This document shows, piece after piece, positions 3,306-43,944 of a DNA stretch of 48,720 nt. Both the position numbers and the translations under genes were made by a program. The DNA comes from a virus (taxonomy: Duplodnaviria > Heunggongvirae > Uroviricota > Caudoviricetes): IMG/VR virus record IMGVR_UViG_2541047815_000004, one strand, 5' to 3'. Positions within the stretch are counted from its first letter, which is position 1. The number at the start of each line of letters is the position of its first letter. The notes beneath the pieces were generated by a model that did no database searches, had not been told where the DNA came from, and worked only from the letters and a program-made list of their open reading frames with translations.

Positions 3306-3881
3306 CTACGGCAGTGCTGGCCATTCAATATCCTGTGCAGTTGACGTATCAACACGGTTCAGCAACACCCGATACTTTTTCCAGGCTTCCAGCAATGAGG
3401 TTTCTTCCTCCGTTGCGATTTCCAGATCTACAGCATCCTGAAGTGGCGCAATATGCTCACTGGCTACCTGCATCAGGCTGTTTTTTGTTTCTTCCGCCTC
3501 TCGGATCCGGAACAGTTTTTCTGCTTCTGCATCTTTCACCCAGGCTGTGCCGTTCCACTTCTGAAACTCCCCTTCCGGCGATAACCAGGTAACATTTTCC
3601 GGTAACGGACCGAGTTCAGAAATAAATAACGCGTCCCCTGACGCTACGTCATAAACCGTTTTACCCCGATGGTCTTCATCGAGATGCCACGATGCCTTAT
3701 CACTGTTGAAAACAGCCACAAAGCCAGCAGGAATATCTGGTGGTGCAATATCGGTACTGTTTGCTGGCAGACCTGTATGAGGCGGAATATATGCGTCACC
3801 TTCACCAATAAATTCATTAGTTCCGGCCAGCAGATTATAAATTTTTATGGTCCGTGGTTGTTCACTCATTCTGAATGCCAT
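3306..3881 (-). CDS. tfaQ: Tail fibre assembly protein (Tfa), 191 aa
   Basis: Immediately downstream of stf with a 1-nt stop/start overlap; sequence typical of lambda Tfa homologues. Confidence 0.8.
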
Positions 3882-6800
3882 TATGCAAGCCTCACAATAT
3901 AGTTAAATGCGATGTTTTTGACGGTGTTTTCCGCGTTACCAGCAGCGTTAACGGTGATGGTGTGTCCATGTGAACCAATCGCAACGGAGTGCGTATGAGC
4001 ACCAATACCGACAGTATGCGCGTGTGCACCTGCAGATGCTGCTGTGCCGGACAGTGAATGGCTATGATTACCATCTGTACTGGTATTCGCTAACCACCCC
4101 GTAGACATACCTACTGAGCCTTGTACACCCCAGGTATTTTGACCTGAGCTTGTATAACCATATTGATAAGTATCTTTAAAAACACTGGGGTTAAATCGAC
4201 GGCCATCTCTATGGCTGTGATTACCAGCTGTATTCGTGCTGCCACTTAAACTATGGGTATGCGCACCAGTGTTATTCGTGGATTTAGTGCCGTAATCAAA
4301 CGACGATGTGGTTTTCGTCCCCAAATCCGTACTGGATGCGCTGGCGCTGTGGGTATGCGATTTAATGCCATCCTGTTCCTGAGACAATACGGCACGACCA
4401 CTGGCGGGCTTGCCCTTAATCGTCCAGCCACGCAAATCAGGGATCACGCCTGACGGATAAGCGGCAGCAAGTTTCGGGTAAGCAGATTTGTCAAAAGTCT
4501 GCCCCTGCATCAGGGCATAACCAGACGGAACGGTATCTGATGGCCACGGGATTGGTGCACCGACTGGGTAGCTTTCTGGTGGAAGATTTTTCGAGGTATA
4601 AACTTCTGCCCAGTCTTCCTCAAAACCATAACCGTCTCTTGAAGAACGGTAGAACAGACCACCATTTCTGTAATGCGCCTTCATCTGCAAGGTCCGGCAA
4701 CTTCCGACTCCGGTATAGAAGTTAACCAGAATATAGCTGTTGCCAGAGCGGGTGACATTGTAAGCGCCTGATTCGGCATTCCATGGAACGCCACCATCCG
4801 CATCGGCATATGTATCCGTTGCCCTTCTGGCAAAAGCAGCCACATGCGCGGCGGTTAAAGTAATATCTCTGGAACCATCAAACTCAACACCAGAAACCAG
4901 TCTTGGCGTTTGCAGCTTTGTTGCTGTCAATGCGTTACCGTTCAGACTTGCAGACAGTTTGGTTCCAATAACCAGTTCGCCGGTTGCGTTATCAATAACA
5001 AACGGTCTTAATGTATTCCAGCCACCATAAACATCACCTTGATTGGTAAGCAGCAGGTAAGTTTTAGCGCCATCATTACGCCATAATGCCCCATACTCCC
5101 CACCTATCATTCGAATCTGATTACCACCACGCGCTACAATTTCGTCTGTGGCAAAAAGTTTTTTGCACGACAAGTTATCGTTAACGATTAACGAATGAGA
5201 CTCATAAAAACCACGCCCACTCTTAAAATCAAGGATAACGTCCGCCGCGATACATTCAGTCGCCGGATTTGTTGCCCCAAACTTATAGGTCGTATCATTA
5301 ACAACGAGATCAGCACCAGGTGCGGATATTGACAGGCCATCTTCGATAAACGCAAAAACAGGGAAAGCAGCGCCATCAACATAGAACACAGAGCGCAAAT
5401 CATCGCCCTTATTACTCATCATTATTGAGTGGATGGCTCGTTCATTATTTTGATATTGCCAGAACATTCCATAAGCATAACGCCCCCTGTCAGTCCAGCC
5501 ACCAGGCATAACAAATCCGTTAAACTCGCAGTTATTCATCGGATCGCCTGCGGTTCGCGTTGCCGTGGTGATAATGACCCTTGATGCCAGTTCGCTTACT
5601 GAGCCAGCAGAACGCATAACAACAACAGGGTAATATTTTCCAGATATTGCACCTGCAGGAGCGTTAACCCGCACATAACGCATACCACGCTTATCAGCAA
5701 AGTCTGTTTTACTGACCGCGTTAATGTTGTTCAGGAAGCGTCCCTTATCGGGTATATCAGCGCCGTTCTGGTCTTTCTGCAGACGTTTCTCTGCATTGTC
5801 ATAGGCTGATTTTACTGCCTTTGGCGTTGCCGCCAGCGTTTCAGACGAACTGTTGGTCGCACTGCTGAGCTGTACTATCCCCTTTTTCGTCGTACTTGCA
5901 TCCTCAAGCGCCACGGCGGATGCAATATCCTCTGCCCGTTTAGCTGCTGTCTCGGCGCGCGTTGCTGCGGATTCTGCCGTATTCTTGCTCTGTGCTGCCG
6001 CCGTCGCACTGCCAGCAGCCTCTGTTGCCTTCGTGGATGCCGTCGTGGCGCTGCCTTTCGCTGCTGATGCCTGTCTGGTCGCCTCATCTTTTGAAGCAGA
6101 CGCCGATGAGGCCGATGACGCCGCCGAACTGGCGGACGATGCGGCAGCCGTTTTTGAGGATTCTGCGCTGGTTTCCGACGCTTTCGCGTTCGTTTCGGAT
6201 GTCTTCGCTGCGGAAGCTGACCTCGCTGCTGCGTTGGCCTGTTCAGTGGCTTCGCCAGCCTTCGTTGTGGCTGTTGAAGCAGACGATGCGGCACTTTCTG
6301 CCGATTTTCCGGCGGCGGTGGCACTGGCTGAGGCCTGCCCGGCACTTGTTGACGCGGTACTGGCAGACGACGCAGCCGCTGTTTTTGAGCCTGCCGCAGC
6401 TGAGGCGCTCTGTCCCGCTGCCGTCTCAGAAGACCTGGCGTTCGTCTCGGACGTTTTTGCCGCCTTCGCGGAATTTCCTGCCGCCGTTGCCGAGGAAGCT
6501 GCGCTACTGGCGCTCGAGGATGCGTTCGTTTCTGATGATTTCGCTGCCTCTTTTGAGGCCGCTGCATCCCGGGCTGAGGTGGCAGCTTCTGACGCTTTCG
6601 TGGTCGCGGTGGATGCAGAAGTGGCTGCTGATTGTTGTGACGCTGCGGCATTCGTTTCTGACGTTTTCGCCGCACCGGCACTGGTAGCCGCCGCGCTTTT
6701 TGAGGACTCTGCAGCGGCAGCACTTTTTGATGCTTCAGTAGCCTTTGTTGATGCCGTTCCTGCGCTGGAAGACGCTGACTGAGCCGACGTCGCGGCCTGC

Positions 6801-28764: not shown

Positions 28765-28971
28765 CTTCATTTTCACTTTTTTAAATCCAACGACAGACGG
28801 CTGGCATTTAAGTATTGTGAAATATTATCAAATGTAATCATCATTGATTTACAAAAGATACATTTTGCCCCGAAAGGATTCATGTCAGAAACATCAAAAG
28901 ATGATGTTCTATACTGGGAACCATGACAACACGGGCATCTAAAGTGAATATGGTTTGTAATATTGTCTACC

Positions 28972-29184
28972 TCAAAGCGCCACTACATGAACAGCGGCAG
29001 GACCTTTAGGTCCGTTCTCAATACCAAATTCAACTTCCTGATTCTCAGTTAATGTTTTGAAATCGTTGCTCTGAATTGCTGAGAAATGGACAAACACATC
29101 TTTGCTGCCATCTTTCGGCGTGATGAAACCAAAACCTTTTTCAGGGTTAAACCATTTCACTAAACCAGTCATTTTGTTAGACAT
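28972..29184 (-). CDS. cspI: Cold shock protein CspA family, 70 aa
   Basis: Cold-shock-domain motifs KWFN..KGFGFI and VHFSAI; recognised as CspI. Confidence 0.9.
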
Positions 29185-29546
29185 AATTATTACCTTTTGA
29201 AGAAATTAGCCCTTGGGCAGAATGGTCCGAAAAAAAATATCAGAGAGAAAAACCAACAAGGAAATCTCAAGAGGTACAAATAATAAAATTATAACAATGA
29301 CTGCTTCAGATAAATTTGTAACAAACCAGAACACCATTAACGCATGATTAACCACCCATAGCAAGGATTACTTTTGTAAAGAAAAACACAGCAATGAAAG
29401 AATAGCTTTATTTATTAATAAAACGTGTCATTCTGATTAAGACCTTTTATCTTGCCCTTAAGATTTCAGGAATTTTGGCTCATGGAAGAGTCCTTTTTAT
29501 TTAAATTTTACATTCCGCGATGTAAATGTTCCGATTTAATATTACC

Positions 29547-32836: not shown

Positions 32837-33117
32837 GAGATTGTGGTGCTTTTTGTGGGAGTCATCCACTTACGCACTTTGTTTTGCGATGCCAGCAGTT
32901 AGCTTCTGCTGTGAAACTATTCATGCAGCAAACCTGCACTTCACCACAATGGTTAGCATACTTTTCCTGATTAAGATTTTGCCAAATATGCTAGCCATTG
33001 TTTCATGTATTGGACCTCCTTACTTTTTATTAAAGAGATCCAATATTCACTACTCTGTCCGTATCTCTACTCAGGCATCAGCCTTCTTCGTTATCGTATA
33101 CAGACGAGCGATGAATT

Positions 33118-33333
33118 TTAATCAGTAATGATGACATTTGCTGCTGCAGGACCTTTAGCACCACTCTCTATAGAGAAGGTAACCTTTTGACCTTCAAATA
33201 AGGTTCGATAATTATCATTCTGAATCGCAGAAAAATGCACAAACACATCTTTACTACCATCAACAGGAGAAATAAAGCCGAAACCTTTATCAGCGTTAAA
33301 CCATTTTACTAAACCAGTCATTTTATTTGACAT
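33118..33333 (-). CDS. cspB: Cold shock protein CspA family, 71 aa
   Basis: Cold-shock-domain motifs; recognised as CspB. Confidence 0.9.
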
Positions 33334-33633
33334 TCTACATTCCTTAACTTGAGCCTTTCGGCATAAATGGTTTGCATAACAGAAACGACTTCGTACTTAA
33401 TTGGAGAGACTCAAAGAAGGAATAAGTGAATAACACCTGAAATGAGAACTGCTTTAGTAAACTACTTCGTATATCGTCTGTTCTTCAAACCGACGCAATC
33501 ATTAACGCATAGTTGAACATATGAAGCAATGTTTATTTTAGACATCCAGCCATCTTCAACCCCATCAAAAAACTATAGCTTTCTTCAGGAACGTGTGTAT
33601 AGTGCGCCAAGTTATCAGTATTAAGGAATTTTT

Positions 33634-36794: not shown

Positions 36795-36828
36795 TTGAAA
36801 ATAAAAACAAAAACCCGCCGAAGCGGGT
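36795..36828 (-). terminator. Strong intrinsic terminator with UUCG tetraloop downstream of hokD
   Basis: Minus-strand RNA AACCCGC-UUCG-GCGGGUU followed by UUUGUUUUUAUUUU. Confidence 0.65.
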
Positions 36829-36897
36829 TAAGTGCGGGTGCGTTGAGGATGCCTGCCACATCAGAGGTGGCGAGGGATTTCTCCCTCGCCGGGTCTC

Positions 36898-37053
36898 TTA
36901 CTCCTCAGGTTCGTAAGCTGTGAAGACAGCGACCTCCGTCTGCCCGGTTCGGATTCGTACCTCGCAGAGGTCTTTCCTCGTTACCAGTGCCGTCACTATG
37001 ACGGTTAAACAGATGACGATCAGGGCGATTAACATCGCCTTTTGCTGCTTCAT
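36898..37053 (-). CDS. hokD: Hok-family type I toxin, 51 aa
   Basis: MKQQKAMLIALIVICLTVIVTALVTRKDLCEVRIRTGQTEVAVFTAYEPEE; AAGGAG Shine-Dalgarno; in-frame upstream extension in the track ORF. Confidence 0.85.
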   Translation of the reverse strand: MKQQKAMLIALIVICLTVIVTALVTRKDLCEVRIRTGQTEVAVFTAYEPEE

Positions 37054-37516
37054 AGCCTGCTTCTCCTTGCCTTTCGGCACGTAAGAGGCTAGCCTACATG
37101 TGTCTAGCATGAAATTGGCCTCAGATTAATGTTAAGCGTCTTGCAGGACGCGTAATGTTAACTGGGGCTTTTCTCTATCTGCCGTTGGTGTTCATGCCCG
37201 AGGCAGATACGTCAGTGATTCAATACAACTATTGGGTATAGTTCCTCTGATTTTTTCTGTGGAAATGGGGCACAACCACTAGTCACCACCAGCACTTCTT
37301 TTAATACGCAAAGTCCGACACAAGCTAACCTTCTAGTCCGCTTTGAGCGAGGAACGGACGTTGTATAGGTTAGTTAGCGCATCCTCATGAATTGGTGTTC
37401 CTTAAGAGATTCATAACGAAGCGTTTGCATCGGCGGTAGTGTTTATAATCGGTATGAGCCCCCGAGAGGGCTCACATTTCAAATGTATTACGAGGTTACG
37501 CTCAATTAGAAACTTC

Positions 37517-39808
37517 TCATATGTTTCCGCGATAAATCACATTCAAAGCCCGTCGAGAGTAAGACATCAGTTCACCTGGCGTGATGGGTTCTGATGATGC
37601 CTGAGGGTTCGTGTCATGATGATAGCGACCAGCATAATTGTTAATTTCATTCAACTCAGGTACCAGTGATTTAGCGAAGAATAACGGATCGCTCGGTTGT
37701 GCTTGTGCAATCTGCGCTACTACCTCTCCAAACAGATTTCCCGGTGAAATTTGCCCCGGGAAACGACGATGCAGATACCCTTCAAGAAGCGGTCTGATCG
37801 CCACCGCCGTATCGTGAAGCTGATGATGAGCACCATCGGCAAATCCGCTCACCAGACGATGATTTTTATAGTAGGGAGATTCACATTCCAGATCGATATC
37901 TAGTTTATCCAAGCTACTGAAATCACCAGCAATGTTGACAATGCGTAAGGTTGAAATGTCCTGCATTTGAGTAGCAGGTATTTTCAGGAACTCATCTCGC
38001 ATGGTACGGATAAAGAACAGGTCGTGCGCCAAGATGATTACCTGCAAGCTGCGAAGGTAAATCTGTTTAATGATGGTGATTGTGTGGTTCCTGCGATGAT
38101 TGTCCAGACTACACATCGGATCATCAATCACTACAATTTTTCTCTCAAGATCAACGTCATGAAGCAACACTGAAATAAAGAATGCGAAGGCTAGCGTCCT
38201 TTTGTCCCCTTCACTCAATGAGCTCCGGAAACTGGATTCTTCTCCCGTTAGCGAAATCTTTTCCCCTCTAAGTTCAATTGCATATTCAGACTTAGGCTCA
38301 CCGCCGCCAGCATAGTTATAATTAATTTCTGTGATGCGAAAGCTTGCACCAAACTTCATCAATAAATCATTGATGGAGGATTGATACTTTCCAAGGGTCG
38401 AGTCCATGATCGCATTGAGTTCAGCCCTCCGTGTTTCCTTCAGTTCAGAGGCAACCACTTCAGCAGTTTTAGCGGTCTGATAATCAGAGATAAAACCTAC
38501 TATCTCAGGTGATAGACGAAGTCGTGTTGCTTCATACTGGGATAATGTAACCCGCAGGGTTTCTTCATTTTTGGTTTCAAGCGCCTCTTTATAAGCCTGA
38601 ATATCCAGATTGGCAGCTTCCACGCCCGAATTAAAGATAGAAAGCTCATCATTGATTGCAGTTACTGCATCCGCGATTTCTTTTTCATAGTCGCCTTGGG
38701 TCTTTGCAAGCGGATCGTTTTTCTTGGCTTCCGTTAAGCGGTTCAGCGATGATTGAAGACCTTCCAAACTAGCTTTAATTTTATCTAAATCAGGGAGACT
38801 CACGGGCAACTGGAGACAATCTTTCCAATTTTCAGTCACTAAACCAGCCTGCTCAATCTTGCTTTCAAGTAAGGCCAGATTGAAAACGCGCATGGCAGTC
38901 GCCACAACTTTATCTAGGCCTGTGACCTGATTAAGTAAGGCTTTGTATGCAAGATTAAACCGCTCCCGGTAGTACCGGATCAGTTCAATACCCTCCAGGC
39001 TTTGCGTACAGAAAGGACAATATTCGTCTTTTATATAATCAAGGCCGTTGCTCGCCCATCGCTCAAAACCTTCGACATTGATATGGTCAATATGCGCACA
39101 GACGACCTCTTCTGCACCCGCACTGAGGCTGTCATAGCTAGCTGCAAGAGTGGAAAAAAAAGAACTGAAATCAGGAGCGTAAAGAGGTAACGAAAGATAA
39201 CCCGTACGGTTGCGGATCGTCTCTATTCTTTTGCAGAGATCCAGTTCTGATTCGACTAATGCAATTTTTTCCTGAATGTTATCTTCCTGAACAGGCTTTA
39301 TGTATTTTGCTAGAGTTACATTCCCCCGGGCTACTGTCAGCTTTTCACTTGCCAGTCTCGTAACTCTCTTGGCCTCCTCTGCCTTGTCTGATGCATCAAT
39401 AAAAGCAGCCCTCGCGGCTACCGCATCACTGCCCAGCGCAAAACTCAGCAGTCGCTTTCTATGGCTAGCGCTGATTTCACCACCTGAGTAAACATTACGG
39501 TCAACAAAATCTAGGTCGAAGACGTGCACATCTGAATACTTACCATTCCATGTATCGTTATCGTAAATCGCACGATTTCCCTGCGAAAACTGCAGATGAA
39601 TATTTTGAGGGGTCGTTTCCCCAATCGTTTTCCTGTGCCGTACAATATCTGGATTTAATTCAGTGTAGGAACGCAGAATTGACGCAAGGGTGGATTTACC
39701 ACGCCCATTATCAGCATAGACAAAGGTCATTTTTTTAAAGGACATACCAGCAGGACGGATATCCTGGAATAAACCCACGCTGGTAATTTGATGAATTCTT
39801 TCAAGCAT
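37517..39808 (-). CDS. ABC/SMC-type P-loop ATPase with coiled-coil insertion carrying a CxxC motif and an unassigned C-terminal domain, 763 aa; candidate anti-phage defence protein
   Basis: Walker A ADNGRGKST (aa 32-40); about 500 aa predicted coiled coil with CPFC at aa 264-267; signature-like LSEGDK, Walker B KIVVIDDP, D-loop SLD and H-loop ILAHD near aa 530-610; about 150-aa C-terminal domain with RPLLE and HH motifs; AAGGGA Shine-Dalgarno. Confidence 0.6.
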   Translation of the reverse strand: MLERIHQITSVGLFQDIRPAGMSFKKMTFVYADNGRGKSTLASILRSYTELNPDIVRHRKTIGETTPQNIHLQFSQGNRAIYDNDTWNGKYSDVHVFDLDFVDRNVYSGGEISASHRKRLLSFALGSDAVAARAAFIDASDKAEEAKRVTRLASEKLTVARGNVTLAKYIKPVQEDNIQEKIALVESELDLCKRIETIRNRTGYLSLPLYAPDFSSFFSTLAASYDSLSAGAEEVVCAHIDHINVEGFERWASNGLDYIKDEYCPFCTQSLEGIELIRYYRERFNLAYKALLNQVTGLDKVVATAMRVFNLALLESKIEQAGLVTENWKDCLQLPVSLPDLDKIKASLEGLQSSLNRLTEAKKNDPLAKTQGDYEKEIADAVTAINDELSIFNSGVEAANLDIQAYKEALETKNEETLRVTLSQYEATRLRLSPEIVGFISDYQTAKTAEVVASELKETRRAELNAIMDSTLGKYQSSINDLLMKFGASFRITEINYNYAGGGEPKSEYAIELRGEKISLTGEESSFRSSLSEGDKRTLAFAFFISVLLHDVDLERKIVVIDDPMCSLDNHRRNHTITIIKQIYLRSLQVIILAHDLFFIRTMRDEFLKIPATQMQDISTLRIVNIAGDFSSLDKLDIDLECESPYYKNHRLVSGFADGAHHQLHDTAVAIRPLLEGYLHRRFPGQISPGNLFGEVVAQIAQAQPSDPLFFAKSLVPELNEINNYAGRYHHDTNPQASSEPITPGELMSYSRRALNVIYRGNI

Positions 39809-40101
39809 ATAAATCCCTTTTTCTTCGCAATTTTTACCGCTGTGGATTGAGATTAGAACAAGATGAATACTAGTGCACCGTCCTACTAGGAGGATTTTTT
39901 CTGGTGTTGACTCCGTTTGGATGCAGTTAACATATCACGGTTCTGCTCCCCACAGATTGATGCAGATAGATGTTAGTAACGTCTGCTCCTGGCACAAAGC
40001 GGACAACCACGCCAGATCTACCCTGTGCCATGAAAAATGAGAATGTCAATTCACTCCTGAACTAATGCTTTTTAATCTAGTAACGTCTAAAATACCTAAC
40101 A

Positions 40102-40503
40102 TTATCCCTGATAAAATGCCAGTATGCGCTGCATAACTTCACTCATCCGGCACTCGCGACAGATTATGTTTAGGCGACTGTCGTAGCGACGTATTTCTCC
40201 ATCAGGTAACGACCAGATAAGGTCCGGATCAACCACAGCTGTTTTCTTCACCTTTGCCCTCGAGAGTTTTTTGCGGGCGTTTTGCCAGTCCTTACGCGCC
40301 TGTTCAGACGGGAATAACCCGTAGCCGGAGTTGTATACATCGCCACTGGCTACCAGCTCTCTGGCAAGAACGCTCATCAGATATCTAGTCGCACCTGTTT
40401 TAGCTTCCAGTTGCCGTAACGTCTCACGACCGCTCTGGCGCACGAGTTCCACCACCTGCCCTTTAATTTTTTCCCGCTCTTCTTGTGTAAAAACTTTTGC
40501 CAC
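40102..40503 (-). CDS. Hypothetical 133-aa basic protein, GTG start with strong AGGGGGA Shine-Dalgarno
   Basis: Between the O-like replication gene and the ATPase; Lys/Arg-rich, possible HTH; no homologue recognised. Confidence 0.45.
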   Translation of the reverse strand: MAKVFTQEEREKIKGQVVELVRQSGRETLRQLEAKTGATRYLMSVLARELVASGDVYNSGYGLFPSEQARKDWQNARKKLSRAKVKKTAVVDPDLIWSLPDGEIRRYDSRLNIICRECRMSEVMQRILAFYQG

Positions 40504-40543
40504 AAGTCCCCCTTAAAATTACCTCATGACCTGAAATCAAAAC

Positions 40544-41509
40544 TTATCCTCTGAAACCAGGCGGAATTTCTGTATCCGGTTCAGAAATATGATTAACACA
40601 ACGCTGTACAGGTGAACGCCCTAGGCGGATGACCAGTTCGTCCCATTTTTCGCGGAGCTTTGACGGGCTCATGATGTTTTTTACCCAGAATGGATCCCGC
40701 TGTACCCGACCAAACATTTCACAAATTTGTCTGTGGCTTCTGCCATCCAGCATCCGCATTGTGCGCACATCATTGGCCCAGACAGTCCAGTTAGGCTCTT
40801 TTGGTCGCATGATCTCGCCATCATCACTGGCGGCCTGTTCGTAGAGACCCACGATCCGCCCCCATATCCACTGCGCACACGCCAGATCCTCCTGGCTACC
40901 CCACTGGCGTTTTTTCGCACTAAACACAACTGCGCCAGGGTGCCGGATTAAAAAATCCTGTTCAGCCGTCTGCGGGTCCGGTTGCGAAGCTTCCGGACGA
41001 AAAGTGTTTTTATTCTCTGTAGTAATCTCTGTTGTATTCTCTGTAGGATCATCGGGCCATTTTGACCCGATGACATTGGGTCGTTTTGAACCAATGGAGC
41101 GTTTCATTTTGACCTCTTCCATCGTGTCATTTTGACCTGATGGAGCGGCGCATTTTGAACCGATGGATTCGCTCAATTTGCCATCATCTAAAAGCTCGCT
41201 CCCATAGTTAATCGTGTAGAAATTGGTCATATCGCGCTTTGATTTATTGAGCTTTTCACAACGCAAAAGCCCCAGCGTTTTCAGACTTGCAAACGCGCGC
41301 TTTAACGTTGACTCTGACCAGAATGGGAACTGTTCCAGCCATTGTTCCGTTGTGTTGTAAATCCAGCGAACACCATCACATTCCATGCCGGAATTGGTAT
41401 CTCTCAACCAGTAATGCAACTGCTGCAACACAATGGCTTCATTTAAGCCAATCTTCATCGCAAGCTGTGTGTTTATAACCAGTGGGCGTTCAGCAAAAAG
41501 AAGGCTCAT
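40544..41509 (-). CDS. Replication initiator, lambda O-like N-terminal domain, about 321 aa from Met19
   Basis: N-terminus MSLLFAERPLVINTQLAMKIGLNEAIVLQQLHYWL resembles the gpO N-terminal domain; gene contains an internal iteron array and AT-rich stretch like ori-lambda. Confidence 0.6.
   Translation of the reverse strand: MSLLFAERPLVINTQLAMKIGLNEAIVLQQLHYWLRDTNSGMECDGVRWIYNTTEQWLEQFPFWSESTLKRAFASLKTLGLLRCEKLNKSKRDMTNFYTINYGSELLDDGKLSESIGSKCAAPSGQNDTMEEVKMKRSIGSKRPNVIGSKWPDDPTENTTEITTENKNTFRPEASQPDPQTAEQDFLIRHPGAVVFSAKKRQWGSQEDLACAQWIWGRIVGLYEQAASDDGEIMRPKEPNWTVWANDVRTMRMLDGRSHRQICEMFGRVQRDPFWVKNIMSPSKLREKWDELVIRLGRSPVQRCVNHISEPDTEIPPGFRG
41058..41173. repeat. Five direct iterons (consensus CATTTTGACCnGATGGAGCG) at 23-bp periodicity: candidate replication origin inside the O-like gene
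   Basis: Copies start at 41058, 41082, 41105, 41128 and 41151; flanked at 41006-41046 by an AT-rich stretch with two TTCTCTGTAG repeats. Confidence 0.6.
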
Positions 41510-42011
41510 AATTCCATCCAGCTTTTTGTTGGTATTGCTGTCGATACGCAAGTTTGAAAGCAATTGCTTTTTCTATAAGTTCGTCAGTTTCACGATCCAC
41601 TACGGCAGGATCAGCAAAAAGCAGTCCGGACTCCACCACATCGCCATATTCTTTGTTTAACCCGGCGATCATGTACGTGATGCTTTTTCCGTCACTAATT
41701 TCACGATACAACCTGAAATCATTAATCCGGATAGCCTCCATAATTGCAGGCACTAGCGCCGTGAACTTTTCACGCTTATCCCTGGTGTCGATAGCCTTCC
41801 AGCGTTCGAATATCTTCACTCGATTAACGCCAAGCGCTCGCTGATCAACCGCGCCACCTTCATCTGTGACACGCTGAACATCGATGTTCGGGCGCTCTTT
41901 CAAAGCCCAGAATGCTTCAGTGATTAATATCGTCGCCTGCTCCTGTGTCATTCCTGGTCGACATATCCAGGCATCCAGAGCCTCACGAGCCTGTTCAGGA
42001 GTGATTTTCAT
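41490..42011 (-). CDS. YdaT-like protein, 173 aa, in cII-equivalent position
   Basis: Directly downstream of the Cro-like gene; internal segment KIFERWKAIDTRDKREKFTALVPAIMEAI resembles Rac YdaT as recalled. Confidence 0.5.
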   Translation of the reverse strand: MKITPEQAREALDAWICRPGMTQEQATILITEAFWALKERPNIDVQRVTDEGGAVDQRALGVNRVKIFERWKAIDTRDKREKFTALVPAIMEAIRINDFRLYREISDGKSITYMIAGLNKEYGDVVESGLLFADPAVVDRETDELIEKAIAFKLAYRQQYQQKAGWNYEPSFC

Positions 42012-43891: not shown

Positions 43892-43944
43892 TTTCTGGTG
43901 ACGTTTGGCGGTATCAGTTTTACTCCGTGACTGCTCTGCCGCCG
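43892..43944 (+). ncRNA. dicF: DicF small RNA (ftsZ-targeting sRNA processed from the dicB operon transcript)
   Basis: Sequence TTTCTGGTGACGTTTGGCGGTATCAGTTTTACTCCGTGACTGCTCTGCCGCC followed by TTTTT matches DicF as recalled; between ydfC and dicB. Confidence 0.8.

Follow-up and report, generated by a model that had tools for sequence, protein, structure and literature searches.

A defence-gene hot spot between hokD/sok and a Ren-like gene of a Qin-like lambdoid prophage, and its RloC-like ABC-HEPN cargo

The anticodon nuclease RloC was defined by ATP-binding cassette (ABC) motifs, a Rad50-like coiled coil with a zinc hook and a nuclease triad of the form R-x3-E-x36-52-H, mutation of which abolishes anticodon nuclease activity (PMC2610378). 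Its nuclease domain was later classed as HEPN, and HEPN domains with conserved Arg and His residues are typically RNases; prophage-borne ABC-HEPN proteins have already been noted, and the same survey sets the prophage-associated APECO1_4465 family of such proteins apart from RloC proper (PMC3710099). An ‘RloC orthologue’ of Escherichia coli APEC O1, beside a phage replication gene, appears in Table S1 of PMC2610378. Here we describe a 763-aa RloC-like ATPase encoded at 37517–39808 on the minus strand of IMG/VR record IMGVR_UViG_2541047815_000004, a 48,720-nt stretch that we call the window and that corresponds to an E. coli Qin-like lambdoid prophage (100% identity with strain 20KM0223N). The gene stands between the hokD/sok toxin-antitoxin locus and a 133-aa gene with a DUF977 domain, in DNA that is exchanged for other cargo in related prophages. 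Genome comparison strongly supports a defence hot spot of Qin-like prophages at this slot, and we consider it likely that its cargo here, an RloC-like ABC-HEPN protein, aborts infection by cleaving tRNA.

Judged from its sequence and predicted model, the ATPase has the domain organisation of RloC. Like the RloC proteins of Geobacillus kaustophilus and Acinetobacter baylyi (Davidov & Kaufmann 2008, PMC2610378), it joins ABC motifs and a Rad50-like coiled-coil insert with a CX2C zinc hook to a C-terminal helical nuclease domain, here of predicted HEPN fold, that carries R-x3-E and a downstream His, and in both cases the gene is mostly a stand-alone one for about 760–830 aa. The ABC motifs are invariant in 33 homologues: the Walker A motif ADNGRGKST at residues 32–40 (39689–39715, minus strand; G35, G37, K38, S39 and T40), S532-E-G-D-K-R537, D562/D563, S567/D569 and H595, which together cover Walker A, the ABC signature, Walker B, the D-loop and the switch His. 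In the predicted model an antiparallel coiled-coil insert of about 370 residues splits the ABC-ATPase head, with helices 114–241 and 275–485 as its arms and the CPFC hook (C264-x2-C267; 39008–39019, minus strand; both cysteines invariant in the 33 homologues) at the tip, in a low-confidence connecting loop. The best structural matches of this model are SMC/Rad50 heads with coiled coil, the Pfam match is AAA_13, and sequence matches to solved structures are confined to Rad50 chains (E of about 1e-4) at the signature/Walker B region. When the C-terminal domain (residues 637–763; 37520–37900, minus strand) is searched by fold in isolation, HEPN domains are the top matches. Its full invariant set in the same homologues comprises D639, C642, S644, Y646, R672, P673, E676, H680, R682, N723, H730, H731 and N734, so that R672-x3-E676 is kept throughout, and H650 could match H295, one of the residues that RloC shares with PrrC. 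RloC is further marked by a Zn- and DNA-responsive removal of the wobble nucleotide from tRNA. We leave strict RloC membership aside and call the protein ‘RloC-like’, comparing it with RloC by published features; the prophage-associated ABC-HEPN clade represented by APECO1_4465 may include it.

Two further described systems come close. PrrC (EcoprrI) likewise joins an ABC-type NTPase to an anticodon nuclease of the HEPN class and follows an abortive-infection logic, and the PADLOC PrrC model matches the ATPase part of our protein (E=5e-7). At the same time, PrrC has about 400 aa and no coiled-coil/zinc-hook insert, and a type Ic hsd locus both surrounds and silences it, whereas no hsd genes lie in the slot or its flanks. 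HepS of the Salmonella prophage Gifsy-1 is reported to be a lambdoid-prophage HEPN protein whose cleavage of tRNA anticodon loops aborts infection (PMC13043305); it consists of a single HEPN domain activated by a siphovirus tail-tip protein, with no ABC ATPase or coiled coil. Among computational families the match is to PADLOC candidate PDC-S06 (model PDLC04895, E=7.4e-72), a single-gene candidate locus like ours, which aligns protein residues 1–691 with profile positions 1–716 of 784 and thus covers most of the ATPase; the last 70 or so residues lie outside the model match, and the family is a computational candidate only.

The ATPase is a rare member of this RloC-like/PDC-S06 kind. Its gene was found in 8 of 5,426 E. 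coli genomes, always in this slot; seven of the copies are 100% identical, and the eighth is 85% identical in a prophage whose flanks are also only about 85–88% identical. One other locus, also among the NZ_CP053787 / NZ_CP123260 matches in which an IS1-split copy was seen (see below), carries an insertion of an IS3-family element within the interval. Relatives of full length (about 760 aa), with identities as low as 37%, occur in Enterobacterales, Alcaligenes, Burkholderiaceae and metagenomes, several of them named ‘wobble nucleotide-excising tRNase’ by JGI or UniRef (automatic names). Among the sequenced phages of INPHARED there is no homologue besides one partial match at 25% identity. The contexts of homologues elsewhere (L254, L257, L259) are a plasmid, a helicase neighbour and a P2-like prophage: on a conjugative IncFII plasmid of Pantoea one homologue adjoins an EcoRII restriction-modification system, one directly follows a gene for a 1106-aa DEAD/ResIII helicase with a 61-nt gap, possibly as an operon, and one, 46% identical, lies between the replication (gpA) and portal genes of a Klebsiella P2-like prophage.

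The slot itself is framed by two conserved blocks, the hokD/sok side and the DUF977 end of the replication module, around some 2.6 kb of exchangeable DNA (about 37363–39977). Part of the region 36800–40600 is matched in 4,798 of the 5,426 E. coli genomes, the whole interval in 8 only. The flanks, common to thousands of these genomes, stop at about 37362 and 39978; in pairwise alignments the left border falls at about 37350–37368 and the right one at 39970–39990, and with a query built on another cargo the flank homology halts inside the same two boundary repeats, described below as arms, in about 2,000 further genomes. Other cargos of the slot number at least 25. Between near-identical flanks we found a retron Ec67-type reverse transcriptase, a DUF262 protein, two hypothetical proteins and methyltransferases, and further cargos include a DUF4209 protein (on the opposite strand), KwaB-like plus QueH, and AbiH with a second gene; the PADLOC models matched by alternative cargos are retron I-C RT-Toprim, NsnA/PD-T4-2_A, PD-T7-1, PDC-S39, KwaA/KwaB and AbiH. 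In the window the ATPase is the sole cargo gene, there being no other open reading frame (ORF) of at least 60 aa wholly between the arms that does not overlap it in another frame, and the cargo has a GC content of 44.3% against 49.1% for the window.

All that is expected of a hot spot is thus seen here, namely conserved phage-gene flanks, many cargos at one position and an enrichment of known defence systems, and genome comparison strongly supports the view that the interval from hokD/sok to DUF977 is a defence-gene hot spot of Qin-like lambdoid prophages. A preliminary description of this DNA, made from the window alone, had proposed an exchange hot spot for accessory or defence genes, and the many different cargos between identical flanks bear this out; the alignment across E. 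coli prophages that it had recommended showed constant flanks and let us map the cargo boundaries. It was also right in spirit about K-12, for which it had named relE, relB, ydfV and flxA: the K-12 interval holds relBE, ydfV and flxA, while DUF977 and the O gene have been lost. All of the sequence features that it had listed were found in place, the intergenic region measuring 293 bp. Our literature searches found no description of this slot. It resembles known phage defence hot spots in that conserved phage genes surround a short, highly variable locus with diverse defence systems, and differs from them in its Qin-like lambdoid setting, its position from a Ren-like gene to hokD and its pair of 27-nt inverted palindromic repeats. 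Considering that the hot spot has base-pair boundaries in a very common E. coli prophage family, these could guide a search of thousands of genomes for new anti-phage genes, following the example of P2 and P4.

We read the PDC-S06-like ATPase as a defence protein because both the slot and the neighbourhoods of its homologues are defence contexts. In the mechanism we consider likely, the protein would be made in the lysogen from its own promoter and stay latent until infection produces DNA ends, breaks, replication intermediates or a similar DNA signal. Sensing would fall to the Rad50-like head with its coiled coil and zinc hook and would depend on ATP; the HEPN domain would then be released to cut tRNA anticodon loops, so that translation stops and infection aborts, all by a single-gene abortive-infection system. 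Several observations weigh against this reading. H730 and H731 stand at x53 and x54 after E676, outside the published spacing of 36–52; R349 and N352, which precede the catalytic His in RloC/PrrC, have no counterpart in the ATPase, and P673 takes the place of N321, the Asn after the first Arg. No Pfam or PADLOC model recognises the sequence of the C-terminal domain alone, and the PrrC model in particular does not match it. Our literature searches found no experimental defence or RNase activity for the ATPase or any PDC-S06 member, no sigma-70 promoter reaches the consensus threshold in the region upstream of the gene (39809–39977), and the gene is dispensable, because one of the eight copies, from the identical seven, is split by IS1 (IS1A; NZ_CP053787 / NZ_CP123260 matches).

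The ATPase could instead be a Rad50/SMC-like factor of DNA repair or DNA targeting with a non-catalytic or DNA-directed C-terminal domain, or belong to another ABC-HEPN clade directed at other RNA, for example mRNA or rRNA. This would agree with its best solved-structure matches (Rad50, SMC, RecN and RecF), with the unmatched R-x6-H half of the PrrC/RloC active site, and with the separation of the APECO1_4465 ABC-HEPN family from RloC proper (PMC3710099). We nevertheless think it improbable, given that an invariant set of polar residues lies within the HEPN fold, a domain that with conserved Arg/His is typically an RNase (PMC3710099), that no Mre11/SbcD-like partner gene is present, and that the ATPase resides in defence hot spots. 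As an RloC-like anticodon nuclease, the protein would offer a compact, rare, single-gene ABC-HEPN test bed, in a tractable host, for the way in which a Rad50-like coiled-coil/zinc-hook sensor controls the nuclease of RloC during phage infection.

The preliminary description had also proposed that the small gene next to the ATPase encodes its regulator or partner. This gene (40102–40503, minus strand) starts with GTG, 4 nt downstream of the Shine-Dalgarno sequence AAGGGGGA, and its 133-aa product is basic (25 K+R against 17 D+E; pI 9.7), all as described. The protein matches Pfam DUF977 over its full length (residues 1–133; E=6e-27, 94.8 bits against a curated cut-off of 22.1) and PHROG 142 (E=1.9e-44), a family named ‘Ren-like exclusion protein’. 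It shares with lambda Ren a position right after the replication genes (the O-like gene here, O–P in lambda) and a common C-terminal 20-residue motif (50% identity between its last 20 residues and the C-terminal end of Ren, pairwise E=4e-6), and differs from it in length (133 against 96 aa) and in its N-terminal two thirds, which are unrelated by BLASTP; literature searches on DUF977 found nothing. A two-gene system of the ATPase with this protein as regulator or partner might be suspected from the adjacency of the genes on one strand and from the basic character of the protein, whose N-terminal part weakly matches PHROG 2391, ‘DNA binding protein’. However, an identical protein, WP_001151189, flanks ATPase, retron and DUF262 cargos alike, and a close variant, WP_001151190, flanks the DUF4209 cargo. 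Moreover, the boundary repeat does not enclose the gene, no DUF977 gene adjoins the ATPase homologues of a plasmid, a chromosome and a P2-like prophage, and the Ren motif and Ren’s place after the replication genes speak for a different affiliation. Since it is a conserved flank alongside other cargos, the DUF977 protein is not the partner of the ATPase, and we regard the two-gene system as hardly credible. By its sequence relationships the gene is the conserved last gene of the replication module, an ordinary phage gene unrelated to the ATPase and not cargo.

The strongest repeat in 37111–40110, which the preliminary description had missed, is a 27-nt imperfect inverted repeat (23 of 27 positions complementary) that actually brackets the cargo. 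Its left arm, GTCCGCTTTGAGCGAGGAACGGACGTT (37336–37362, plus strand), has a GAGCGA centre (‘L-type’) and is itself a palindrome, GTCCG..CGGAC; the right arm, GTCCGCTTTGTGCCAGGAGCAGACGTT on the minus strand (39978–40004; AACGTCTGCTCCTGGCACAAAGCGGAC as written), has a GTGCCA centre (‘R-type’). Both point into the cargo, and these are the only 2 arm copies in the window. Arm pairs were present in the loci inspected at the sequence level, with the exceptions of L010, which has no recognisable left arm, and the diverged locus of strain STEC299 (L006), which has none. Across 25 cargos the left arm is at least 90% conserved to position 15, variable at 16–17, conserved again at 18–24 and in the TT of 26–27, and random from about position 28. 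In K-12 an R-type and an L-like arm (L009:4227–4250 and 5218–5241) bracket flxA and the 3’ part of ydfV, in an orientation relative to hokD opposite to that in the window and with different outer flanks. The K-12 ydfV ORF crosses one of these arms, where the MG1655 record annotates no repeat, and may be spurious.

The arms belong to a wider family, which is widespread and for which the literature searched held no prior description: nothing was found on the arm sequence or on its pseudo-peptide translation. Scanning IMG/VR and GTDB genomes with the arm motif gave at least 120 loci in each. The counts that follow are among the matches listed. Viral contigs hold at least 81 convergent arm pairs that enclose 0.4–3.5 kb, about 75 of the 81 consisting of one arm with a GTGCCA centre and one with a GAGCGA or GAGCAA centre, and the outer contexts of the pairs number more than 20, one of them being the DNA that follows umuDC close to a tail-fibre gene. 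Fourteen pairs stand back to back, with a spacer of 4–18 nt (exactly 18 in ten of them, consensus CTTCAGCTCAGTTAYCTY), and form a 66-nt double palindrome between adjacent cassettes; such junctions imply tandem arrays. Together with the E. coli loci there are 88 cassettes in 53 cargo clusters. Their cargos include defence genes, such as ThsB (Thoeris), DarT/DarG, SIR2 with adenosine deaminase, PDC-S33 and a Pycsar cyclase, as well as non-defence genes, such as transporters, a LysR regulator, HAD and NUDIX enzymes and FlxA. In consensus an arm reads GTCCGCTTTG[A/T]GC[G/C]ANNAGCGGAC-RTT, the conserved RTT lying just inside the arms. A search of Rfam gave no family for the arms, the array junction or the flank hairpin described below; whether it holds an attC model was not checked.

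Related 24-nt palindromes, ATGTCCGCTTTG[T/G]G[C/T]CA..AGCGGACAT, part almost every gene in loci of alphaproteobacterial metagenome-assembled genomes (L141, L147 and L157), the count being 6 for L141 (7 kb) and about 20 for L147 (8 kb). GTGCCA centres alternate with GGGTCA centres, some copies form pairs at a distance of 45 or 91 nt, and the palindromes translate to ‘MSAL..KADI’-like pseudo-peptides. This high intergenic density is like that of repetitive extragenic palindromic (REP) and bacterial interspersed mosaic element (BIME) repeats, yet the 48.7-kb window has just two copies.

We take integron attC sites and the T4 ‘PeSL’ mobile regulatory cassettes to be the nearest parallels of the arms, presumably with short, partly palindromic repeats at the borders of accessory cassettes and tandem arrays with one composite element between cassettes. 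An identity with attC was rejected: the arm ends ..TAGTAAC / GTTGTAT.. do not fit RYYYAAC/GTTRRRY, the arms are convergent and not co-oriented, the window has no intI gene and no tyrosine recombinase gene adjoins the slot. Unlike the T4 ‘PeSL’, the arms have no promoter-like content. The idea that the arms travel with the ATPase gene was likewise rejected, as its homologues elsewhere are arm-free.

A dedicated recombination system, swapping cassettes at the 27-nt arms in the manner of attC or dif modules, would explain why all of the roughly 25 slot cargos begin within a few bases of the arms, and it would fit the facing L and R types of 75 of the 81 listed cassettes in more than 20 outer contexts, the near-fixed spacer of 16–18 nt in the 66-nt double palindromes between neighbours, the RTT conserved just inside the arms, and the K-12 arm–flxA–arm unit with its opposite orientation and other outer flanks. 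On the other hand, no recombinase is linked to the slot, and neither an empty slot with joined arms nor a junction-only site was found in the 5,426 genomes. No cargo occurs in two contexts among the 53 clusters, nor does PDC-S39 in E. coli; in other settings the ATPase homologues stand without arms; where related prophages have exchanged DNA, the tracts extend past the arms; the extended hairpin in the arms shows no significant stem covariation; and the abundant intergenic palindromes of Alphaproteobacteria are as expected of REP-like repeats. Overall, we find such dedicated recombination sites unlikely. The arms could be REP-like insulating or structural repeats that double as short homologies for cassette replacement, or they could be true recombination sites.

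A broader proposal, which we put forward tentatively and hold to be possible rather than probable, is that the arms are half-sites of an undescribed element that bounds cassettes in enterobacterial prophages and in mobile elements of other kinds. Each cassette would have one GAGCGA and one GTGCCA arm facing each other, with back-to-back arms and an 18-nt spacer between neighbours. Such an element, which would be related to the abundant palindrome family of Alphaproteobacteria, could direct the capture and shuffling of defence genes, either through a dedicated enzyme or through Red/RecET acting on homologies of about 25 bp. Boundary repeats of this kind might explain how slots take so many cargos at exactly the same nucleotide, and, if the arms are indeed recombination or insulation elements, they would represent a new principle of prophage accessory-gene organisation.

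The arms also account for a direct repeat in the ATPase-upstream region. The 11-bp sequence TAGTAACGTCT is present, as the preliminary description had reported, at 39974–39984, where it overlaps the inner end of the right arm, and at 40078–40088 in the conserved flank, 14 nt after the DUF977 stop codon (both on the plus strand), and it has no other copy in the window even with one mismatch allowed. That description had suggested operators or recombination scars. Functional operators, or a target-site duplication left by the ATPase cassette, could be argued from an exact 11-mer occurring twice, 104 bp (about 10 helical turns) apart, from a chance of about 0.011 for such a repeat within the 293-bp region alone, which is borderline, and from the position of copy 1 exactly at the cargo boundary. 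However, about 3.2 +/- 1.9 repeats of 11 nt within 300 bp are expected by chance over the length of the window (9 are seen, most of them tail-fibre repeats and origin iterons), and the copies cannot be a target-site duplication because both lie on the same side of the cargo. Copy 2 is identical in the other-cargo loci L002–L005 and diverged in L006, whereas copy 1 varies with the inner end of the arm: it exists only where that end reads AGACGTTACTA, and the aligned loci L002–L005 have TAACAACGTCC, ACTAGCGTCT and other sequences in its place. Neither copy is kept in the STEC299 cassette, which is about 84% identical. Target-site duplication and operator were thus both rejected as identities of the 11-mer, and a function of either kind seems very unlikely to us; the repeat is best seen as a side effect of the boundary repeat, a chance agreement between the arms’ inner motif GAC-RTT-RCTAA, common to the whole arm family and sufficient to explain copy 1, and a word in the flank.

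Within the arms, the cassette has ends of its own. The first 80 bp or so on the cargo side of the left arm (37363–37442) are private to this cassette, with no match in other-cargo loci or in the STEC299 ATPase cassette; homology to the latter begins at 37443, about 10 nt outside a hairpin that follows the ATPase gene. This 3’ hairpin (37453–37476, minus strand; centroid -15.8 kcal/mol) has a 10-bp stem, a UCGG-type loop and no U-tract. Its core, TGAGCCC-n6-GGGCTCA at 37455–37474, is the palindrome that the preliminary description had placed about 45 nt after the ATPase stop codon; it is real and begins 42 nt past that codon. The stem is kept in the STEC299 copy, with changes only in the apical pairs and the loop, while perfect 7-bp hairpins number 40 in the window against 21 +/- 5 in simulations, so that one alone is not significant. 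A canonical intrinsic terminator was rejected here, as there is no U-tract and the hairpin is not among the terminator-scan calls; ATPase homologues elsewhere end with ordinary terminators of unrelated sequence. The hairpin, which marks the end of the cassette or of its transcript, is probably a weak terminator or a 3’-end stabiliser.

At the other end, the cargo-side 5’ region of the ATPase gene spans 39809–39977 (minus strand), of which 39809–39900 is common to the STEC299 copy by alignment. It contains a near-palindrome, TCCTACTAGGAGGA (39881–39894), about 75 nt upstream of the ATPase start codon. This candidate operator or 5’ untranslated region element is conserved in the STEC299 cassette, itself roughly 84% identical. 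Beyond the arm boundary, a conserved flank hairpin, TGGCACAGGG...CTTTGTGCCA (39990–40030, minus strand), shares the outer half of the right arm; L006 has a similar stem, and the 121-nt fold that contains the hairpin has -31.1 kcal/mol (z = -2.1).

On the minus strand the order of genes in this part of the prophage is cro-like, YdaT/cII-like, O-like, the 133-aa ORF, the 293-bp spacer, the ATPase, hokD/sok, rem and ydfU (DUF968). The left flank of the slot (37111–37335) is 97–99% identical in loci with other cargos. Next to it lie both parts of a hok/sok type I toxin-antitoxin system, a Hok/Gef toxin ORF and an upstream sok RNA region: hokD is at 36898–37053 on the minus strand (Pfam HOK_GEF, E=3e-23; RefSeq annotation of the identical locus NZ_CP151045), its ORF being readable up to 37110 (36898–37110), and the sok-family antitoxin/hok 5’ regulatory region is at 37048–37214 on the same strand (Rfam RF01794, scoring 61.1 bits where the gathering score is 59). 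Right at the upstream end of this match, at 37209/37210, lies the joint of a 197-bp deletion; the deleted piece (L002:1911–2107) is kept in all other examined loci, including strain WEC with the same ATPase. It holds a Shine-Dalgarno AGGAGG followed by a 30-aa hydrophobic ORF, VLVLKCALAITAVMAIYCLAIVLMDRLSD, which gave no match in an NCBIfam search and may encode an unannotated small membrane peptide or toxin.

On the other side, the O-like replication gene occupies 40544–41563 (minus strand). The C-terminus of its product has matches to DnaT-like and DnaD-like loader profiles, with DUF977 directly next, and a distinct P-like or helicase-loader gene is apparently missing from the replication module. 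The O-like gene contains 11-mer direct repeats in two pairs, TATTCTCTGTA 24 bp apart and TCATTTTGACC 23 bp apart (41011–41045 and 41104–41137), which are probably origin iterons, as in lambda O. Other gathering-level Rfam matches in the window (3340–3538, 28945–29330, 33102–33494 and 43893–43944) are an IS009 RNA, two cspA thermoregulators and DicF.

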